Virus record (IMG/VR): IMGVR_UViG_3300030613_000005
Strand: one strand, 5' to 3'
DNA: 43,847 nucleotides
From: a virus
Shown piece by piece: positions 2,007 through 27,188 of the stretch (position 1 is its first letter; each line of letters starts with the position of its first letter). Under the pieces are notes generated by a model. The model did no database searches. It was not told the origin of the DNA and worked only from the letters and a program-made list of their open reading frames with translations. A program made the position numbers and the translations under genes.

Positions 2007-5000
2007 ATGGGCGGAAATCCGTTAATTGACCAGTACCTTAAGAACCTAGCAGCAGTTCAGCAGTTCCGTATTAATAATACACATGCTGGACGTCTAGATT
2101 CTTTTAGTGCTGGATCCCCTACCGCATTACAGTTAGCGCTGGAGGCTATGCGGGCTAGGTCGCCCATCGGAACATACACTCCTGCACAAAAAGAAGACAG
2201 TGGTTTTAAGTTTAGTTCTTTGTTTAAAGTGCCTGCCGATCAGGAGTGGCTACCTGATTGGATGAAAAAAGCTTACACAGTTTCTCAAATTATTAATCCA
2301 GCTGCACTAGCCGGTAGGGCAACAACTGAGGGTATTGCTAAAGCAGCAGAAGTTGGTCCTATTAAATGGGGTATTGAACAGCTATCACGGCCTATGTACG
2401 GTGTAGGCTCTATGATAGAAGATACGAATAAAAAAGCAGATGAGATGGGCCGTAGTCGCTGGATTGGCCCAGATGTAGACCCTAAAGCTTTAGCAACATC
2501 CTTTCTTGAAGGTATTACTCTTAAAAATAAGGTCACTCCTGGAGAAGCGTTATTAGGGAAACCAGAAGGCCCAGCTGAAGGTTGGGGAGACGTAGGTAAA
2601 GGTGCTGCTAGATTCGGGCTAGACGTAGCTTTAGATCCTCTTAGCTACATTGGTGTAGGCGCTGCTACTAAAGCAGGTAAAGTTAGCAAAACTGGTAAAG
2701 CAACTGAAATTATTCAAGGGATACCTAAAAAAGAACCTTTAGCTATTGAGAGGCATTCTGTTAGCACTCCTAGGTTTACAGCTGGAACTACTGGTATTGC
2801 TGATAGGTTTAACCCTATTCAGCTGGCTGATGAAATTACAGCTAGTTCTTTAACTAAAACTGTGGCTACTACGCCTAAGCTTGCTCATCCTGGTTTAAAT
2901 GTAGATCCTATCTTCAAGGATGTTACTACTGAAAGTATTGTACGTACTCCTAAGACTGTTACAGAAACTGTAGAAATACCGTCATTTTTAACAGAAGAGC
3001 CTAAAGTATCAAAGAGCCTTGCTCAGCGACGTGCCGTTAAAATGGCTATGCTACAATCTCCTGGATATAAAGTCCAAGGTCAATACACCATAAATGATTT
3101 ACTTAAGACCGCGGCAGAACACCCAGAACGTCAAGCAGACATTGAACGTATAATCAATGCTGAGGTTAATAGAGTATTCAAAGAACGTAAGGTAAATACT
3201 GTCTTACCTTCAAGTAAAACTGGACAACAGCTTATTCCTTTCACTGGTCGTGAAGGTACAGGTAAAGCTGCTTTTGGCCTTACACTTGAGCAAGCCACTA
3301 AACTTTTCAGTGAAGGTAAAATTGGCGGGACGTTAGGCGGATATGGTAGTAAAGAGGCACAAGACTTTCTTAGTGCTCTGCCTTTTCATGACCCTTCTGA
3401 TTTTAATATAGCAACACTTAAAAATGCTAAAGGCGCTACTGTAACACTTAAGCAGTATTTGGATGATCTGGGTGTAGATGTTACAGCAGTCACGCCTACT
3501 GGGGAACCGAAAAGTATTTTATCACACAGTGTGGATGACTCAGCTTTCGCAAGTATGGTAGTACCTAAGGCTAAAACAAAAACTGTCATAAAAACTATAT
3601 ACGAAGAAGTTAAGAAAACTACTGCAAAAACCCAACGTTTATCTCAAGCAGAATCCATTGCTTGGGCACTAAAGCACCAAGGTGTCTTGTCTAAAGATGA
3701 GATTTCTTATCTTCGTATTAGCAAGAATAGAGAAGAGTTCTTTGCTAGAGTAAAGGAGCTATCTACCAAACAAATTGCTGGTGACTTTAAAACACTACAG
3801 GCTGTGGTAGATGCGCACAAAGCTGGCCTAATCCCAGCTGAGGCATTTCAAAAGATTCTAGATATTGCAGGTGCTAAGAATGCAACTGAGTTACTCAAAA
3901 AAGCAGATAAAATTCTCAATGGCATTAAAGGTAAGTCTAAGGTTACTAGTGCACCTAAAGTAGAACGTATTAAAGGTAAAGCGCCTGACACTGTGTGGGA
4001 AGGTGTTAAATCTGTAGACCAAGTAATTTCAGATGTGTCTAAGGGCGATACTAGCCTAGTACAACCAGCCGCACCGGTTGTAACTCAGCAATTAGTTACA
4101 GACCTAACTAATGCGATCCCAGAAGCTGTTCAAAAGAATCTAGCACGTGTATTGGACCCTAAAGGTGAGTACAAATGGGAAACAACGATTAAGAAAGCTA
4201 AGAGGACATCCCCTGTAGCGGGACAAGGCTATGGGAGAAATCTTCATGGCTGGAATATGTACTCACAGTCAGATGTATTTAGGGCCTTAACAACGGGCGC
4301 CTCTAAACGGCTGTATGGAGTTACTAGAGGTAAAACAGGGTCAGCACTTCACGCAGCATTAAGAGTACGTCCCGCTATGATGTATACGCAAGTAATGTCT
4401 GCTATGCGTGCTGCTGAGTTTGCACTTAAAAAACAAGGCGTTAAGATAGTAGCAGGGTCTGATAACTCAGGTTTGTTACTATCCATGGTTGATGTGCTAG
4501 ACAGTTTAGAACCAAGACTTGTCCAGAAGTATCTCTTTAGTACAGCAGATAAGTTTGCACCTAATGTCTACCCAACTAAGTTTATTGCTGCGGCAGAAGC
4601 GTACGCCCAGACAGCCATCGGCGGAGGATCATTAGATCTAGCACGTGAAAATGCTATTTCTCTGTTTTCTAAGACAGGAACAGGGGAACGGTTCGGTAAA
4701 ACTGGATCAGTAGATGAATTAGTAAGCAGTATCGAAACTGCTATGCCTAGTATCATGCAACGAATTACTGCAAATTACGCAGAAGAGAGTATTAAGTTAG
4801 GAGAGTCTGTTGTGTCAATGACAGACTCTGTAATTAGTACACTACTTACAGAGTTCTCGAATCCTAGTGTTTCTATTGGTAAAGCTTTTGAGAAACTTAT
4901 GTCTAGCAGTTCTGATATGGCGGCTGTAGCTAAGAGCATAAGTGCCCCACAAGGAGCTGTACAAACAGCTAAAGTTGTGTTGTCCAGTGAACTTGCTACT

Positions 5001-16708: not shown

Positions 16709-17559
16709 TAGTCTTCCTCTACAGCGTAGCCATATCTCGTGTTTACCTCATAGTTGAATTTACGTTCCATCTTACCGTCGCCGCCATTAGCTTCCACGGC
16801 GCATAGGCTTTTAAAGGGACAGCTTCTACACACTGTCTGGTTAGCGTTTCTAGATACCTTAGTTTCCCACTCCCCTACTTCTAAAGACCTAAGATCTAGC
16901 ATCCGCTCTGACGCATTTACTAGATCACGAAATGCATTTTGAATCCTAGGAGTAGACAAACGTAGAGGGGCTAGAAGATATTTGTCACTCTCGTTATTGA
17001 GCTTACGGTATCGAATAAAACCGTACATCCCGTCACGGACGTTTAAACCTAACGCCCTAGCTGCTCCTACATACCTAGGTAACTGCGGGGCTAGGGACAT
17101 AAAATCTGCGTCATAGAAGTCATATGTAAACTTCCAATCAACAAATTTCTTTTGTCCATCTGTGTCATAGATACAAGCATCTACTGTGAACGCATAAGTA
17201 AAGTCTGGAAAATCTAGCATGTACTCTGCTTCTACAGTTTCAATTATCCAGCCACTAATACGATCCTCGTACCACTCTACAAACCCTTTAGCCAAAATAA
17301 GTGCTGCTGCCACTATAGGAGGGTTTGAGTTACTTCTCAACTCTACTACAGCTTGATTTGCCATGACAGCTAATCTTGCCTGATGGCCACCTGTAGCGGA
17401 AAAGTATGCTTTTAACAATGAATGACCGGTAATACCTCTATTTAAGGCGTCACTCATACCGTTACTACGAATTAGTTTTTCACCAAAAGCGTAGTAGTGT
17501 CTACGCTCACATTGAACAAAACTATCTACCTCAGAGTGACTCAGGATTGGTAGGTTCAT
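16708..17559 (-). CDS. Cas4/RecB-like PD-(D/E)XK exonuclease with Fe-S cysteines
   Basis: N-terminal Cys (VQCERRHYY). Core FVDWKF. C-terminal CRSCPFKSLC (C-x2-C-x5-C). Confidence 0.7.
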   Translation of the reverse strand: MNLPILSHSEVDSFVQCERRHYYAFGEKLIRSNGMSDALNRGITGHSLLKAYFSATGGHQARLAVMANQAVVELRSNSNPPIVAAALILAKGFVEWYEDRISGWIIETVEAEYMLDFPDFTYAFTVDACIYDTDGQKKFVDWKFTYDFYDADFMSLAPQLPRYVGAARALGLNVRDGMYGFIRYRKLNNESDKYLLAPLRLSTPRIQNAFRDLVNASERMLDLRSLEVGEWETKVSRNANQTVCRSCPFKSLCAVEANGGDGKMERKFNYEVNTRYGYAVEED

Positions 17560-17755
17560 CTGGGAGAACTCCCGTAAGTAGGTACTGCTGAATCTTGTCT
17601 GCGTCTATTAGAAGGTCATAGATAGTTTCGTGGGATACAGATGTTGCTAGGGTTACTACTCGTTCACGTAGTGCTGCTTTCTGTTCCTCTGACATTGTGA
17701 CCTGTTCAATATCAGTTGTTGCAGGATTAAAAAGAAAGCCACTAAGGTTGTCCAT
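17531..17755 (-). CDS. Hypothetical protein (74 aa)
   Basis: ORF overlapping both neighbours by short distances. Confidence 0.5.
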   Translation of the reverse strand: MDNLSGFLFNPATTDIEQVTMSEEQKAALRERVVTLATSVSHETIYDLLIDADKIQQYLLTGVLPDEPTNPESL

Positions 17756-18308
17756 CTTCTTCCTCTACTTTTCGTTGAGATGGTACAGTATTCCAGTACA
17801 CTTCTGAACTAAGGATTTCTTCCATTGTTGCTTTAGTTGTTCCATCATGCGGAGCCCATTGGTCTGTGCCAAAAAGCTCTGTAAAAACGAGGTCGTTACG
17901 AGTATGCCAACGATTGTGGCAGTCAACGCATACTCGGTGTACATTACCCTCAGAATTGTTAAGAGTATTTTTGTCAGGGCCATGGTGGCGGTTAGTAGCA
18001 ACGCCACCCGGACAGCCAATAATAGGAAACCTACCACCACCTGCAAACTTAAGAGCCAACCATTCACATGCCATTCCTTCCTCAATTGGATACAGTACGG
18101 CGGCTCTTTTTCGTCCAGTAGATTGGGGATCAGTAACATCTTCGTTGGCTTTGACTGGCCCGGTTCTAGCATTCTGTAAATCTTCCAAGTGCGCATTAGT
18201 ATGTTGACCGCCACAACAGCAAACTAATTTCTCTAAGTCTGGATTAATACATTCTTCGTCAAAACCAGTAGCACAAGGCATGCAAAAGTTATTATTTTGA
18301 TTTAGCAT
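17742..18308 (-). CDS. HNH-type endonuclease-like protein
   Basis: C-terminal NRHHGPDKNTLNNSEGNVHRVCVDCHNRWH (H-N-H with CxxC). The start is set to ATG 18308 because the longer track start lies inside the upstream terminator hairpin. Confidence 0.55.
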   Translation of the reverse strand: MLNQNNNFCMPCATGFDEECINPDLEKLVCCCGGQHTNAHLEDLQNARTGPVKANEDVTDPQSTGRKRAAVLYPIEEGMACEWLALKFAGGGRFPIIGCPGGVATNRHHGPDKNTLNNSEGNVHRVCVDCHNRWHTRNDLVFTELFGTDQWAPHDGTTKATMEEILSSEVYWNTVPSQRKVEEEDGQP

Positions 18309-19336: not shown

Positions 19337-19510
19337 TTACCTTGGCTTCACTTTTCCAGTCGGATCTAGTACGAACTTGTTACAAGGACAGATCATGACT
19401 ATACAAGGTGTTCGTACTTCAAACCTTTTAGTATCATCTGGCGAAGGTACCTCTACTAGTCTTTCAGGATGAGCCCCGTTAGTGTGTCCGCACTCCTTAC
19501 ATCTTTTCAT
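19337..19510 (-). CDS. Small zinc-ribbon-like ORF (57 aa)
   Basis: ATGA overlap with the deaminase stop. Translation MKRCKECGH...CPCNKF. Ends 11 nt before the endolysin ATG. Confidence 0.5.
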   Translation of the reverse strand: MKRCKECGHTNGAHPERLVEVPSPDDTKRFEVRTPCIVMICPCNKFVLDPTGKVKPR

Positions 19511-19794
19511 ACTGTATACACGACTTCCTTTACGTTATAGAAAGCCATAAACTTCCAACAGTCATTACAAGGCCGAGAGAGTCTGGGTTCCCCACATTTA
19601 CCTACTCTAGCCACGTACAATACTAGTTTAGGTGTTTTAATTCCTGGGGAACCCAGACTTCTCAAAGCCGCGACTTCTGCGTGCACAGAGAAGTTACTCT
19701 TCACATTCCTAGGGACATTCTTATTGACATTGGTAGCCAGAGCCACGATATTACCAGAGTTAACTACAACTGCTCCGTGCCGTTGTCTACACAC
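19507..19794 (-). CDS. dCMP/cytidine deaminase-like zinc enzyme (start codon unresolved)
   Basis: HAEVAAL and PCNDCWKF zinc motifs. First canonical start is GTG 19794, but the in-frame upstream codons encode the expected N-terminal helix. Confidence 0.7.
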   Translation of the reverse strand: MCRQRHGAVVVNSGNIVALATNVNKNVPRNVKSNFSVHAEVAALRSLGSPGIKTPKLVLYVARVGKCGEPRLSRPCNDCWKFMAFYNVKEVVYTV

Positions 19795-20192: not shown

Positions 20193-20438
20193 TTATTGTA
20201 GGTATTTTAGTTTAACGAACAGGTATGGTATATCTACCTCTAGATGTGATGGAAATAGATGTGGATACCCCCAGGGTTCTTGGGAAGGAATTAGAACCGG
20301 ACCTTCTGGTATGCGTCGAAAGTCCTTACTCCAAAACATGTCGTACGGACCAATGGCCCCTTCGGGAACTTCCCACTCTTCTTGAGTGTAGTACTTGCCT
20401 GTACATTTGAAAAGAATCACTTCTACTTTCGCCATCAC
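20193..20438 (-). CDS. Hypothetical protein (81 aa)
   Basis: ORF in the minus-strand operon with a GGAGG-like RBS. Confidence 0.6.
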   Translation of the reverse strand: MMAKVEVILFKCTGKYYTQEEWEVPEGAIGPYDMFWSKDFRRIPEGPVLIPSQEPWGYPHLFPSHLEVDIPYLFVKLKYLQ

Positions 20439-20468
20439 CTTACCTCCATAGCTACCATGTCAATACTA

Positions 20469-20666
20469 TTATCGGTCAAAAAGAGTGTCCCATTTTTGGT
20501 ACTCAGTGCAATTTAGTACAGGTGAAGGGCATGTACTATAGTCCCGAATAACAGGAGGCTTGTAGTAAGAATACGAGGTAAAAAAGATACCTAATAGAAT
20601 AAGTGCTGTGACAATTCTTCGTGGCGTCATTTCTTTATACCTATCAGAATTAATCTTTAGAGTCAT
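20469..20666 (-). CDS. Small membrane protein (65 aa)
   Basis: TM segment IVTALILLGIFFTSYSY. The ATG lies 1 nt downstream of tRNA-Asn. Confidence 0.55.
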   Translation of the reverse strand: MTLKINSDRYKEMTPRRIVTALILLGIFFTSYSYYKPPVIRDYSTCPSPVLNCTEYQKWDTLFDR

Positions 20667-20667
20667 G

Positions 20668-20740
20668 CTCCCCCACCTGGACTTGAACCAGGAACCAGCT
20701 GATTAACAGTCAGCTACTCTGCCAATTGAGTTATAGGGGA
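20668..20740 (-). tRNA. tRNA-Asn (anticodon GUU)
   Basis: Hand-folded: TCCCCTA / TA / ACTC-AATTGGCA-GAGT / A / GCTGA-CTGTTAA-TCAGC / TGGTT / CCTGG-TTCAAGT-CCAGG / TGGGGGA / G. Confidence 0.85.
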
Positions 20741-21811
20741 ATAACCCGCTACAGATGAAGTGGGAGGTTTTGTATAGTAGCTGCCTAATTAATCGAAAGG
20801 CATTATAGTCGCTATTAAAAGAAACAACGACACCCGGCTCACGTATCACGGGTACTATTTTTGTGAGCAGGTCTAACGGGCCACGTATTAGACCTGAACG
20901 TATACTTATTAGTATACTCTCCCTTATAAAGGGCCGATAGATGGGGGTAACGACCCTAATAATACTAATCAATAGGAACCAAACAATGGTGGTAGAAATG
21001 ATTTTGTACAGTGGTGGGATCTAATCCTCTTCAACCCGACTTAGCGCACGGGCACTGTTTTTGTCTGTATGATAAAGCTACAGGAGAACCTAGGTCACTA
21101 CTCCTTGTTCTCTCACTTCTGTATAAACTCCGATAGTCCTTAGTGTGAGGACACCGAAGAGCTAATTAGCGGTACTGCGCCCAGTTTTATACGACTACTG
21201 CGTCCAGTAGTTACGGGTTATTGGGCAACCCACACGCAAGGTGTTTACTTGTTGTCTTTAAGCTACTCAGCCCACGGTTTCGGCTACCCGAACGTTTATG
21301 TCGGACCCCACGGTTTCGCTGTAGCACCTTGCCGCACTGAGCTTAAGTAATCTCATCTGTCTCCCCTTCTATACACATTGTTGTGTGAAGCAGGAGGCAC
21401 ACGCTTTACAACAGATCCGCTCAGTCGGGATTACTTGAGAGCAGTTTTGTTCTCGAGGTTGGAAGCCTCGGGTCATACTCAGGACCCACACTCATTTCCG
21501 AATTGTCCGCACTCTCACAGTCCATCTGCGGCTATTTCCATCAGAGTTTCAGGGTTAGTGTGGAAACCCGCTTTGTTCATAGGGGAGTAGTAAGGACCCA
21601 CTATTCTCGCTATTCCCCTACTATTCTGCTATTTCCATCCGAAGCAACTCTTATTTTCCCTGAATTACTTCAATAGCAGAACGTAGGTAGCCAGGATTCG
21701 AACCTGGATCTCTCAGATTGTCCTCACACCATATCGGAGGTCTGAGTATTTTAACCAGCCTAGCAGGGTTAGATAGGCCTGTTAAACTACTACCCGCTGT
21801 GTGTACCTACC
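20741..21811 (-). ncRNA. Candidate large structured noncoding RNA (GOLLD/ROOL-like class or novel)
   Basis: 1071 bp with no credible ORF in an otherwise gene-dense genome. Many local helices, a 19-bp long-range pairing, a tRNA-like 5' element and an adjacent tRNA. The strand is inferred from flanking genes and the T-arm orientation. Confidence 0.5.
21683..21809 (-). ncRNA. tRNA-like element with a canonical T-arm and extended non-canonical arms
   Basis: On the minus strand, CCAGG-TTCGAAT-CCTGG (21691-21707). Acceptor-like pairing TAGGTAC/CTACCTA (21803-09 with 21684-90). Two long hairpins stand in place of the D and anticodon arms. Confidence 0.5.
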
Positions 21812-22231
21812 TTAGCGCGGCCGGTTGTAGGACACAACTACTTTCTTAACGCCTTCTATTGGGATAAGAATTCGGCAGGTGGTGTACTGAACTATTAGCA
21901 TATCCACAGTACCCACCCTACCAATATGCCAGCCTTTCATGTCCTCCTCTCCAAAGTTATAGTATTCTTTATTGCGGTCATCACCCAAGTAGGTAACTTC
22001 TACACTACCAGTCTTAACGAAGTCCTCTTCTTCAGGATCTGTGATTGGATTAGGATTAGGGTACATCCACTCTGGGGTTTCACCATGACCAACTAAGTCC
22101 CCTAGATTGCCCTTAGGTAGTAACGGACTAGAGTTGGGGTCTACTGGATAATTCTGCGCACCTTTCTTTAACTTAGCATATATCTCTTCATAGGACCGAT
22201 TTAAACCCTGCTCTACACATTTACGACACAC
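21812..22231 (-). CDS. Hypothetical protein (139 aa)
   Basis: GTG start preceded by GGAG. ORF in the minus-strand operon. Confidence 0.7.
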   Translation of the reverse strand: MCRKCVEQGLNRSYEEIYAKLKKGAQNYPVDPNSSPLLPKGNLGDLVGHGETPEWMYPNPNPITDPEEEDFVKTGSVEVTYLGDDRNKEYYNFGEEDMKGWHIGRVGTVDMLIVQYTTCRILIPIEGVKKVVVSYNRPR

Positions 22232-26490: not shown

Positions 26491-26589
26491 GTCTACGGTC
26501 TCCGTAGACGGTAGACCGAGCATATGGTTGAACGCTCACCGTCTACTAGGTCGGTAGACATGCAGGTCAGAGGGGGGTCGGCTGTCTAC
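26491..26589. promoter_or_regulatory. Operator-like array: six GTCTAC/GTAGAC half-sites including two GTCTAC-N7-GTAGAC palindromes
   Basis: GTCTAC at 26491, 26541 and 26584. GTAGAC at 26504, 26511 and 26554. The palindromes 26491-26509 and 26541-26559 are 50 bp apart. Confidence 0.6.
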
Positions 26590-26616
26590 AAGATCGTAAA
26601 ATAGTCCCCGGAATAT

Positions 26617-26657
26617 GGGAATAAAGGTAGGTCGCTTAGCGACCGTACTTTATTCCC
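26617..26657 (-). terminator. Strong composite hairpin, possible terminator of the promoter-A transcript
   Basis: GGGAATAAAG/CTTTATTCCC (10 bp) plus an inner GGTCGC/GCGACC (6 bp, loop TTA). The flanks are AT-rich but there is no clean U-run. Confidence 0.4.
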
Positions 26658-27014
26658 AATTATTCCACTAATTAATTATTTTTTCTTTCTTTAACTTCAT
26701 TCTAAACGAAAAAATAGGTTACGCTAGGTATTATATCCATATTCCCTAACGAAATAGTCGAGTTGTTTTTAAGAATATAAATGATACAAAATGGACTCGA
26801 CGAAGTTAAAAACCTATTTAAACTAGTAGAACTTAGTTAAAACTTGGTAAGGGCTCTAATAATGGAATACTAACACTCTCTCATTATCAGTATTATCTAG
26901 TGCTAGGCCCTTAACTAAAGTTATGGGGACTTTCCTCTATTTAATTCTCAATATACTAGCACTAATAAGAGTCATCAACTGTCTTATTGTGCTTGTGCTT
27001 TCCGAACTAGTGCA

Positions 27015-27043
27015 ACTCTACTCCCCTAGCACGAACCCGTCAA
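27015..27043 (-). promoter_or_regulatory. Promoter A: TTGACG-N17-TAGAGT
   Basis: Minus-strand -35 at 27038-43 and -10 at 27015-20. Shares GCTAG(G/A)GGAGTAG with promoter B. It fires into an ORF-free AT-rich region. Confidence 0.6.
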
Positions 27044-27127
27044 ATTTCCGGAGGTTCCCGGACAAAGCGGACATTTTGGTACACATGACGCATAACGCCG
27101 CATTGTTTCCATGCGGACTATAGTGGA

Positions 27128-27171
27128 AAGAATATAGCCCCAACTCCCTAAGGAATTGGGGCTATATTCTT
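27128..27171 (-). terminator. Terminator T1 downstream of CDS 27189..27926
   Basis: 16-bp stem AAGAATATAGCCCCAA/TTGGGGCTATATTCTT plus an inner TCC/GGA. T-rich 3' side on the minus strand. Confidence 0.8.
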
Positions 27172-27188
27172 GTGGAACTATTCAGTTC

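Follow-up and report, generated by a model that had tools for sequence, protein, structure and literature searches.

What occupies a kilobase without genes in a viral genome that otherwise leaves little space between them? The question is raised by positions 20741-21811 of IMG/VR record IMGVR_UViG_3300030613_000005, a 43,847-nt stretch of DNA that was analysed as a whole (the window). An earlier note, made from the letters alone, had described these 1071 bp as helix-dense and read them as one giant structured RNA, preferably of the GOLLD or ROOL class and otherwise a new large RNA. Comparison with relatives shows that the gene-free kilobase contains a real, conserved folded RNA of about 440 bases, and that purifying selection maintains its fold at the RNA level on the minus strand. 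The fallback, a new large RNA, stands: a conserved RNA backed by covariation occupies the centre of the stretch. The favoured architecture, a single RNA domain of 1.07 kb, gives way instead to a string of modules. On the minus strand these would be, in order, a tRNA-like element, an unconserved linker, the ~440-nt RNA, a decayed duplicate of its 3' domain, and tRNA-Asn.

The SNF2 helicase that flanks the stretch has many homologues, and two of the contigs carrying them, L005 (helicase 73% identical) and L003 (65%), also have a gene-free stretch with a tRNA-Asn. Alignment of the three loci showed a conserved core of about 440 nt (window 21431-20992, minus strand). Degenerate pattern scans built from its invariant blocks were used to gather further copies and added L012 and L013 from IMG/VR as well as L014, with two tandem copies, and L015 from metagenomes. 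The family thus comprises eight copies on seven contigs, namely the window and six other phage or metagenome contigs, and ranges in size from 140 nt (L015, made up of the 5' domain and helix P4) to about 530 nt (the second copy of L014, L014b). The parts of the window copy are as follows.

21330-21431, minus strand: universal 5' domain, three stacked stems P1-P3 (eight-copy alignment A2)
21427-21419 / 21342-21333, minus strand: P1, in the 5' domain
21416-21411 / 21360-21355, minus strand: P2, in the 5' domain
21396-21361, minus strand: P3, variable, in the 5' domain
21236-21332, minus strand: P4, hairpin of variable length closed by GCAAGGUG/CACCUUGC, with 8 of 10 pairs compensated and 97.5% of cells paired
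21121-21235, minus strand: central domain, P5 enclosing lineage-specific hairpins and P6
21235-21230 (GUGUGG) / 21126-21121 (UUAUAC), minus strand: P5, enclosing the CTACTG/CAGTAG and GGGTT/AACCC hairpins
21159-21128, minus strand: P6, conserved hairpin in P5, CUUCGGUGUCCUC...AAGGACUAUCGGAG
20992-21120, minus strand: 3' domain, closed by P7; 147.6 bits with covariance model R2
21119-21114 (GAAGUG) / 21000-20995 (CAUUUC), minus strand: P7, long-range helix closing the 3' domain
21112-21084, minus strand: P8, within P7
21083-21065, minus strand: P9, CUGU..ACAG, within P7
21052-21035, minus strand: P10, within P7

The ~100-nt 5' domain is found in every copy (8/8), with the consensus AUCCUG-[P1]-AG-[P2]-UNUAAAGCGNGNGC-[P3, variable hairpin]-[P2']-GAGA(N)ACUUAA-[P1']-GCGGC. 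It begins at a sharply conserved edge, AUCCUGAC, and terminates in GUGCGGC; the loops that join its stems, AG, UGUAAAGCGUGUGC (21410-21397) and GAGAUUACUUAA (21354-21343), are nearly invariant. Across the eight sequences 94% of the cells of its 19 pairs are paired, and 9 of these pairs show double changes. P1 and P2 are 100% paired, with five covarying positions and no one-sided change. The covariation score was reached by none of 500 shuffles, and shifted registers fall to about 30% paired. P1 appears as TGAGC/GCTCA, TAGGC/GCCTA, CGAGC/GCTCG and CGGGC/GCCCG, and P2 as ATCTGT/ACAGAT, GTCTGT/ACAGAC and ATCTAT/ATAGAT. Covariance model R1, built on the domain, returned all eight copies (97-113 bits) and no other match in 160 kb. 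The window copy has the complete family motif (P1-P2-P3 with loops AG, UNUAAAGCGNGNGC and GAGA(N)ACUUAA, then GUGCGG); its R1 score of 100.6 bits is a match by construction, the copy being part of the seed alignment.

Compactness, three stems joined by invariant loops and a sharp 5' edge are also what one might expect of a new self-cleaving ribozyme or RNA-processing element that cuts a polycistronic transcript, the remainder of the RNA being peripheral. Its occurrence as tandem copies in L014 and its sites in operons right after ORFs (open reading frames) or tRNAs would suit such a role. Against it, no known ribozyme model matches, and a small nucleolytic ribozyme would not need the large conserved domains on the 3' side; we regard this explanation as unlikely.

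The helices beyond the 5' domain covary as well. RNAalifold on the five full-length sequences gave 79 pairs with 93.4% of cells paired, and 36 of the 79 show double changes, compared with 2-7 in slid or shifted controls, all counted on the alignment from which the structure was derived. In P6, whose strongly conserved strands can also be given as CUUCGGUGUCC...GGACUAUCGGAG, 6 of 13 pairs carry double changes, two are invariant G.U pairs and 98.4% of cells are paired. P7 differs in sequence from lineage to lineage yet remains complementary (AGAAGUGA/UCAUUUCU, GGGAGUG/CACUCCU, AAGGGAC/GUCCCUU, GGGGC/GCCCC). Besides P8-P10 it encloses the conserved ACAAAAAC (between P9 and P10), a variable hairpin and AUACAAAA. 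Internal loops and single-stranded junctions are better conserved than the stems. Invariant G.U pairs lie at alignment columns 322-350, 325-347 and 246-358. Because they would be A.C on the opposite strand, they place the RNA on the minus strand, in the same orientation as the genes around it.

These observations also bear on whether there is a functional RNA at all. The stretch could be a DNA-level feature (an origin, or a site of recombination or packaging) or decayed genes and duplications; its linker has no homologues, its tail is a decayed duplicate, and the position and order of the cassette change between phages. Compensatory changes in 36 pairs, G.U pairs that would not survive on the other strand, conserved single-stranded loops, and insertions and deletions that are not multiples of three in sequence with no ORF all speak for RNA. 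For the core we disfavour this reading and consider it very improbable as an account of the stretch; it is plausible for the linker (21681-21432) and partly so for the tail.

The comparative signal is hardly visible in a single sequence. All the sequences and coordinates quoted in the earlier note are correct, and its helices are there: the 8-bp AGGTCTAA/TTAGACCT (20869-76 / 20888-95), the GTATAC pair, CTACTG..CAGTAG (21195-21210), GGGTT/AACCC, GGGTC/GACCC and GCGG..TTTCCA / TGGAAA.CCGC. Four of these six local helices lie outside the conserved core, in the linker and the decayed 3'-domain copy, and the other two in the lineage-specific interior of P5. Nor is the stretch helix-dense: it has 6 perfect hairpins of at least 6 bp, compared with 3.0 +/- 2.1 in dinucleotide shuffles (31 of 300 reach 6) and 1-13 in neighbouring coding kilobases. 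An inverted repeat of at least 11 nt occurs in 33 of 300 shuffles. Folding z-scores in 200-nt sliding windows over the core are about 0 to -0.7, and plus and minus strands fold about equally well. The sole intrinsically non-random item in the stretch is a bipartite 8+11 complement, discussed below. Since hairpin density and folding energy are at the level of shuffles and neighbours, the sequence alone would not justify a structured-RNA claim. Elsewhere in the window, the minus strand folds very stably at positions 19500-19699 (z = -5.7, 0/200 shuffles); this fold includes a perfect 14-bp stem, GUCUGGGUUCCCCA/UGGGGAACCCAGAC, and sits within the ORF of a dCMP-deaminase-like protein (19507-19794).

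Does the RNA belong to a known family? Covariance models of Rfam 15 were searched at the gathering score and then with permissive filters at E<=10. At the gathering score the window contains three tRNAs and nothing else. At E<=10 the RNA matched no family, whether searched as the 1.7-kb region 20400-22100, the 466-nt core 20975-21440, the 161-nt minimal copy or four homologous loci. Because there is no Rfam match, GOLLD, ROOL, HEARO, transfer-messenger RNA (tmRNA), RNase P and group I/II introns all fail, and the proposed membership in GOLLD or ROOL is not borne out by the very search suggested for it. For HEARO, the IscB omega RNA, there is in addition no IscB or HNH neighbour; the adjacent genes are that of the SNF2 helicase and small ORFs that match no family. 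The tmRNA mode of ARAGORN remained empty even at a lowered threshold, and its intron mode gave no credible split tRNA. A likeness to AAGUC(C)GG of RNase P RNA lies in the local hairpin P10, not in a long-range P4. Readings of conserved strings, tried by eye, as RNase P-like RNA, as a group II 5' GUGCG, as a T-box AG bulge or as an Asn-codon "specifier" likewise failed, as their registers or conservation do not hold over the eight copies and no model matches. As far as these searches reach, the RNA is a phage-borne, tRNA-associated, ornate non-coding RNA that matches no catalogued family.

A divergent member of GOLLD or ROOL would find a similar setting here: a phage genome, a gene-free stretch with many helices, an abutting tRNA-Asn and a tRNA-like element. 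ROOL and GOLLD form RNA-only cages (PMC12286853). Like them, the present RNA is phage-borne, runs to hundreds of nucleotides, has many covarying helices and lies beside tRNA genes. It differs in lacking any covariance-model similarity, in its smaller size (140-530 nt, below that of GOLLD) and in giving no match in reference genomes to two scans with its block A. With no Rfam match on region, core, minimal copy or the four loci, we regard such membership as extremely improbable.

The tRNA cluster of phage T4 encodes "species 1" and "species 2", stable non-tRNA RNAs of about 120-140 nt that are released by the tRNA-processing machinery. The RNA described here is likewise a non-tRNA RNA among phage tRNA genes, with processing suggested by position only, and has no known sequence relation to them.

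Two features of tRNA shape frame the stretch.

21797-21682, minus strand: tRNA-like element with an 8-bp acceptor stem (one mismatch), a canonical T arm and an altered decoding part
20667-20740, minus strand: tRNA-Asn (GUU), called by ARAGORN and by Rfam (65.1 bits), directly 3' of the RNA block

Both had been anticipated. The tRNA at the 3' end is bona fide by ARAGORN and Rfam, and the element at the minus-strand 5' end has a T loop, GGUUCGAAUCC, and an acceptor stem. Its T arm, CCAGG-UUCGAAU-CCUGG (21707-21691), carries the GGUUCRANUCC loop; this T-loop pattern occurs four times in the window compared with 0.07 expected, and the other three are the real tRNAs. The rest departs from a tRNA. 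The D loop holds an inserted 11-bp hairpin with the loop sequence ...ACCCUGC..., and an extended anticodon arm (CUCAGA/UCUGAG and CCUC/GAGG) is capped by the 11-nt loop CGAUAUGGUGU rather than a 7-nt anticodon loop. The minimum free energy fold retains the acceptor stem, T arm and D-insert hairpin. ARAGORN detects the element only at a relaxed threshold, and the Rfam tRNA model (gathering score 29 bits) does not report it at E<=10.

A homologue at L005:4302-4430 scores 34.9 bits on the Rfam tRNA model, above the gathering score. Between window and L005, pairing is kept in the T stem (CCAGG/CCUGG vs CCGGG/CCCGG), the D-loop insert (UUUAACAGGCC/GGCUGGUUAAA vs GGGAUAAUU/AAUUAUCCC) and the lower (CUCAGA/UCUGAG vs CUUAU/AUAAG) and upper (CCUC/GAGG vs GUCUC/GAGAC) stems of the anticodon arm. 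The loops CCCUGC and CGNNAUGGUGU are conserved in both. Instead of a 5-bp anticodon stem with a 7-nt loop, both copies have a two-part lengthened arm with the 11-nt loop CGNNAUGGUGU. The element cannot take part in normal tRNA decoding. It was not detected in L003 or in the examined stretches of L012-L015, and a scan of IMG/VR with a tRNA-like pattern gave zero matches. Like other tRNA mimics, such as the tRNA-like domains of bacterial Y RNA/YrlA and of tmRNA, and mascRNA, the element keeps the acceptor stem and T arm and has its decoding part replaced. It differs in that Rfam gives no tmRNA, Y RNA or YrlA match and ARAGORN no tmRNA call; its D-loop hairpin insert and the conserved 11-nt loop on a lengthened anticodon arm have no known counterpart in these mimics.

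The tRNA-like element also takes part in what the earlier note considered most telling, a 19-bp pairing that encloses about 565 nt. The bipartite 8+11 complement (21128-35 and 21143-53 with 21719-29 and 21732-39) is non-random in the window, with a duplex energy of -33.4 kcal/mol that 0/500 shuffles reach; as a conserved architecture it fails, since it is not kept in L005. Both partners are already engaged locally: the 3' partner (21153-21128) belongs to P6, of which it takes in the upper 5' strand, the loop and the lower 3' strand, and the 5' partner (21739-21719) covers stem and loop of the anticodon-arm hairpin in the tRNA-like element. In L005, the only relative with both elements, the two are separated by an ORF, and their best duplex is no better than shuffles (173/500).

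It follows that a single giant RNA of 1.07 kb closed by this helix is improbable. The window complement is its strongest argument; the strong covariation of P6, the local pairing of both partners, the chance-level duplex across the ORF in L005 and the lack of a detectable tRNA-like element in L003 and in the stretches of L012-L015 all argue against it. In a weaker form, which we rate no higher, the anticodon-arm loop would dock on P6. A whole-sequence RNAduplex comparison of the tRNA-like element with the core was uninformative, and loop segments were used instead: for the loop of either window or L005, the best duplex site is P6 on most cores. By eye, short pairings between loops can be proposed for the window (GUGUG/CACAC) and for L005 (UGGUG/UACCA), but they need shifted registers and are weak. 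Because the tRNA-like loop tends to favour P6 and the window complement is perfect, we retain docking, or an alternative pairing, as a minority hypothesis.

The two remaining modules flank the core.

21432-21681, minus strand: linker of ~250 nt with several predicted hairpins and short direct repeats
20758-20943, minus strand: degenerate second 3'-domain copy, found by nhmmer (E=0.01), Smith-Waterman and covariance model R2

Neither BLAST nor nhmmer found a homologue of the linker in any related locus. Its folding z-scores are -2.2 to -2.6. As a diverged copy of the core it was rejected, as its similarity of 37 does not exceed that of shuffles (31.8 +/- 5.5). It contains a 34-aa ORF starting with ATG (21525-21421, minus strand), whose UAA stop abuts the first conserved nucleotides of the 5' domain; in L012, L013 and L015 an ORF ends 10-25 nt before the RNA motif. 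The second 3'-domain copy has a Smith-Waterman score of 54 compared with 28 +/- 5 in shuffles (maximum 48), and R2 scores it at 23.1 bits in a full-length match (E about 0.003 in 144 kb). It retains CUAUCGG..UUUAUA, a P7-like GGGAG/CUCCC pairing, ACAAAAA and CUAUACAAAA, and its hairpins include GTATAC and AGGTCTAA/TTAGACCT. Tandem and partial duplications occur elsewhere in the family. The tandem copies of L014 occupy 915-1146 and 1147-~1680, the latter, ~530 nt, being the largest version seen; a canonical T arm (GCGGGUUCGAAUCCCGU) sits within P4 of the first, short copy.

How widespread is the RNA? Copies are present where helicase identity is 65-73% and absent within +/-6-10 kb in phages where it is 47-55% (L006-8, L020-23). 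Two exact scans with the block A pattern gave zero matches in 185,579 reference genomes. In cultured phages BLAST returned similarity to tRNA-Asn only, and a query with L014 also found no match. A search of IMG/VR for exact relatives with the flanking 139-aa and helicase proteins found none, the exact 21-mer of the long-range arm had no match, and no homologues were found for a 109-aa neighbour protein in L005. Several candidates were discarded. A 33-nt match in Agrobacterium phage Atu_ph04 was ruled out as chance by model R1 and by reading the sequence. The first pattern, TCGGTGTCC..GGACTATCGG, gave only chance matches in coding DNA (L009, L010) and in a stricter form none in metagenomes, and a pattern for the 3' half gave four chance matches in coding DNA (L016-19). 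Because the RNA is absent from the relatives with 47-55% identical helicases, from cultured phages and from the scanned reference genomes, it is by this evidence a rare accessory element. A literature search returned only the known ornate RNAs and a catalogue of viral motifs of at most 151 nt, whose contents were not compared. On these grounds the family appears previously uncatalogued and confined to a few uncultured phage and metagenome contigs.

The window is approximately a complete tailed-phage genome of ~43.75 kb, and the same contig was obtained from two sequencing runs. The plus strand carries structural genes for terminase, portal and major capsid protein, the last only ~41% identical to those of the nearest cultured phages. 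The minus strand carries a replication or early block with DNA polymerase I, primase-helicase, a Sak4-like ATPase, an exonuclease, the SNF2 helicase and the dCMP-deaminase-like protein. Within this block the gene-free stretch is bounded by a 139-aa ORF (21812-22231) and tRNA-Asn; its longest ORF has at most 89 aa and overlaps the tRNA. A spacing of 0-20 nt between genes elsewhere, as first reported, is roughly true, except for a second gap of 665 nt at 26524-27188. This gap, possibly a regulatory or origin region, is AT-rich, has no minus-strand ORF and starts, after a 245-aa gene, with a terminator-like hairpin. A gap is present at the equivalent position in relatives (L003 4671-5471, L006 1189-1939, L007 2368-3029), with sequences dissimilar to that of the window.

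The tRNA neighbourhoods of relatives hold further elements. L022 (helicase 47% identical) lacks the RNA and has, between tRNA-Leu and tRNA-Asn (17349-18115), a 71-aa gene with a match to the Acb2/Tad1-hairpin family PF24729 of Pfam. Acb2 and Tad1 are phage counter-defence proteins. The place of this gene between tRNAs suggests that tRNA neighbourhoods are accessory hot spots. In L023:17053-17281, at the end of a ~570-nt gene-free stretch of a related phage, ARAGORN called a tRNA-Leu of unusual length (92 nt) as well as an odd "tRNA-Ser(gga)" of 69 nt whose T arm is normal. L005 and L015 share a second conserved hairpin motif, motif B, which the window lacks; in both it lies just 5' of a tRNA (L005:3215-3300, Asn; L015:2245-2335, Arg). 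It consists of GGAUAGCCAGRUAAGAA, a covarying stem and the loop UGGGCUAGUUGG, and may represent another small tRNA-linked phage RNA family. Upstream of it in L005, some 300 nt without genes (2914-3214), between a 67-aa ORF and motif B, are dissimilar to all other fetched sequence.

What, then, might the RNA do? Across phages it behaves as a movable cassette, mostly with tRNA-Asn, whose position and order vary. In L005 it starts 2 nt past the 3' end of tRNA-Asn; in L012 it ends 2 nt before the 5' end of that tRNA, as does the R2 match in L003; and in the window tRNA-Asn comes after the second 3'-domain copy. No excess of promoter or terminator signals was found for the cassette. With none evident of its own, and with its RNA next to tRNA ends, it is probably transcribed together with the operon. 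We therefore favour, with a probability of roughly 0.55, a minus-strand cassette of non-coding RNA modules inside the replication or early operon, from which tRNA enzymes probably release a trans-acting product. Host tRNA-maturation enzymes would excise the RNA, as happens with other stable RNAs of phage tRNA clusters: RNase P would cut at the tRNA-like element and where tRNA-Asn begins, and 3' processing enzymes would act in phages with an upstream tRNA. This would yield a stable RNA that acts in trans, with the invariant 5'-domain loops as its putative working surface for a protein, a small ligand or another RNA and the variable 3' parts as a scaffold. Its role would be accessory and non-essential, possibly in host takeover or counter-defence. 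The accessory distribution and the PF24729 gene beside tRNA-Asn in L022 fit such a role, as context rather than evidence.

Several points weigh against this interpretation. There are just eight copies, five of them full-length; RNAalifold derived the full-length structure from the very alignment that then served to count its pairs; and the core is unremarkable in its thermodynamic stability. Both the linker and the degenerate copy of the 3' domain may be junk. The functional assignment is pure inference, with no specific partner indicated.

The RNA might alternatively act in cis, as a processive antiterminator like put of phage HK022, a riboswitch, or a leader for tRNA-Asn maturation. It sits on the sense strand of an operon and lacks its own promoter and terminator, it contains two hairpins whose internal loops are conserved, and tRNA-Asn often follows it directly. 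Yet its downstream neighbour varies (tRNA-Asn, ORFs or a second copy), the tRNA of L005 precedes it, it is followed by neither an expression platform nor a terminator, and an ornate 3' domain of 300 nt would be atypical. The put RNAs are about 70 nt long and have no large 3' domain; they resemble the present RNA as operon-internal phage RNAs whose hairpins have conserved internal loops, with no sequence relation. An antiterminator and the ribozyme considered above are reasonable rivals for the 5' domain; regulation in cis we consider an unlikely explanation of the RNA.

Going beyond the cassette with a trans-acting product that we favour, one could imagine that the family is an ornate phage RNA of a new class, in which the invariant 5'-domain loops make up an active site or a specific binding pocket, either as a new ribozyme or as a trans-acting RNA that captures a partner of tRNA shape. 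The tRNA-like element would use its 11-nt loop to dock on P6, and the whole would be an RNA-only device for counter-defence or tRNA hijacking, possibly self-assembling by analogy with ROOL and GOLLD. Taken jointly, these propositions are a long shot.

To our knowledge, large intricate RNAs of bacteria and phages with no known function are few, among them OLE, GOLLD, ROOL and raiA. Each of these opened new biology or new principles of RNA structure. The covariation in the family described here is unusually clean given so few sequences. Its compact universal core (~140 nt in L015) is suited to biochemistry, natural size variants and a companion tRNA mimic come with it, and models R1 and R2 can be used for mining larger sequence collections. 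The finding reinforces a pattern in which the tRNA neighbourhoods of phages are nurseries for complex non-coding RNAs.

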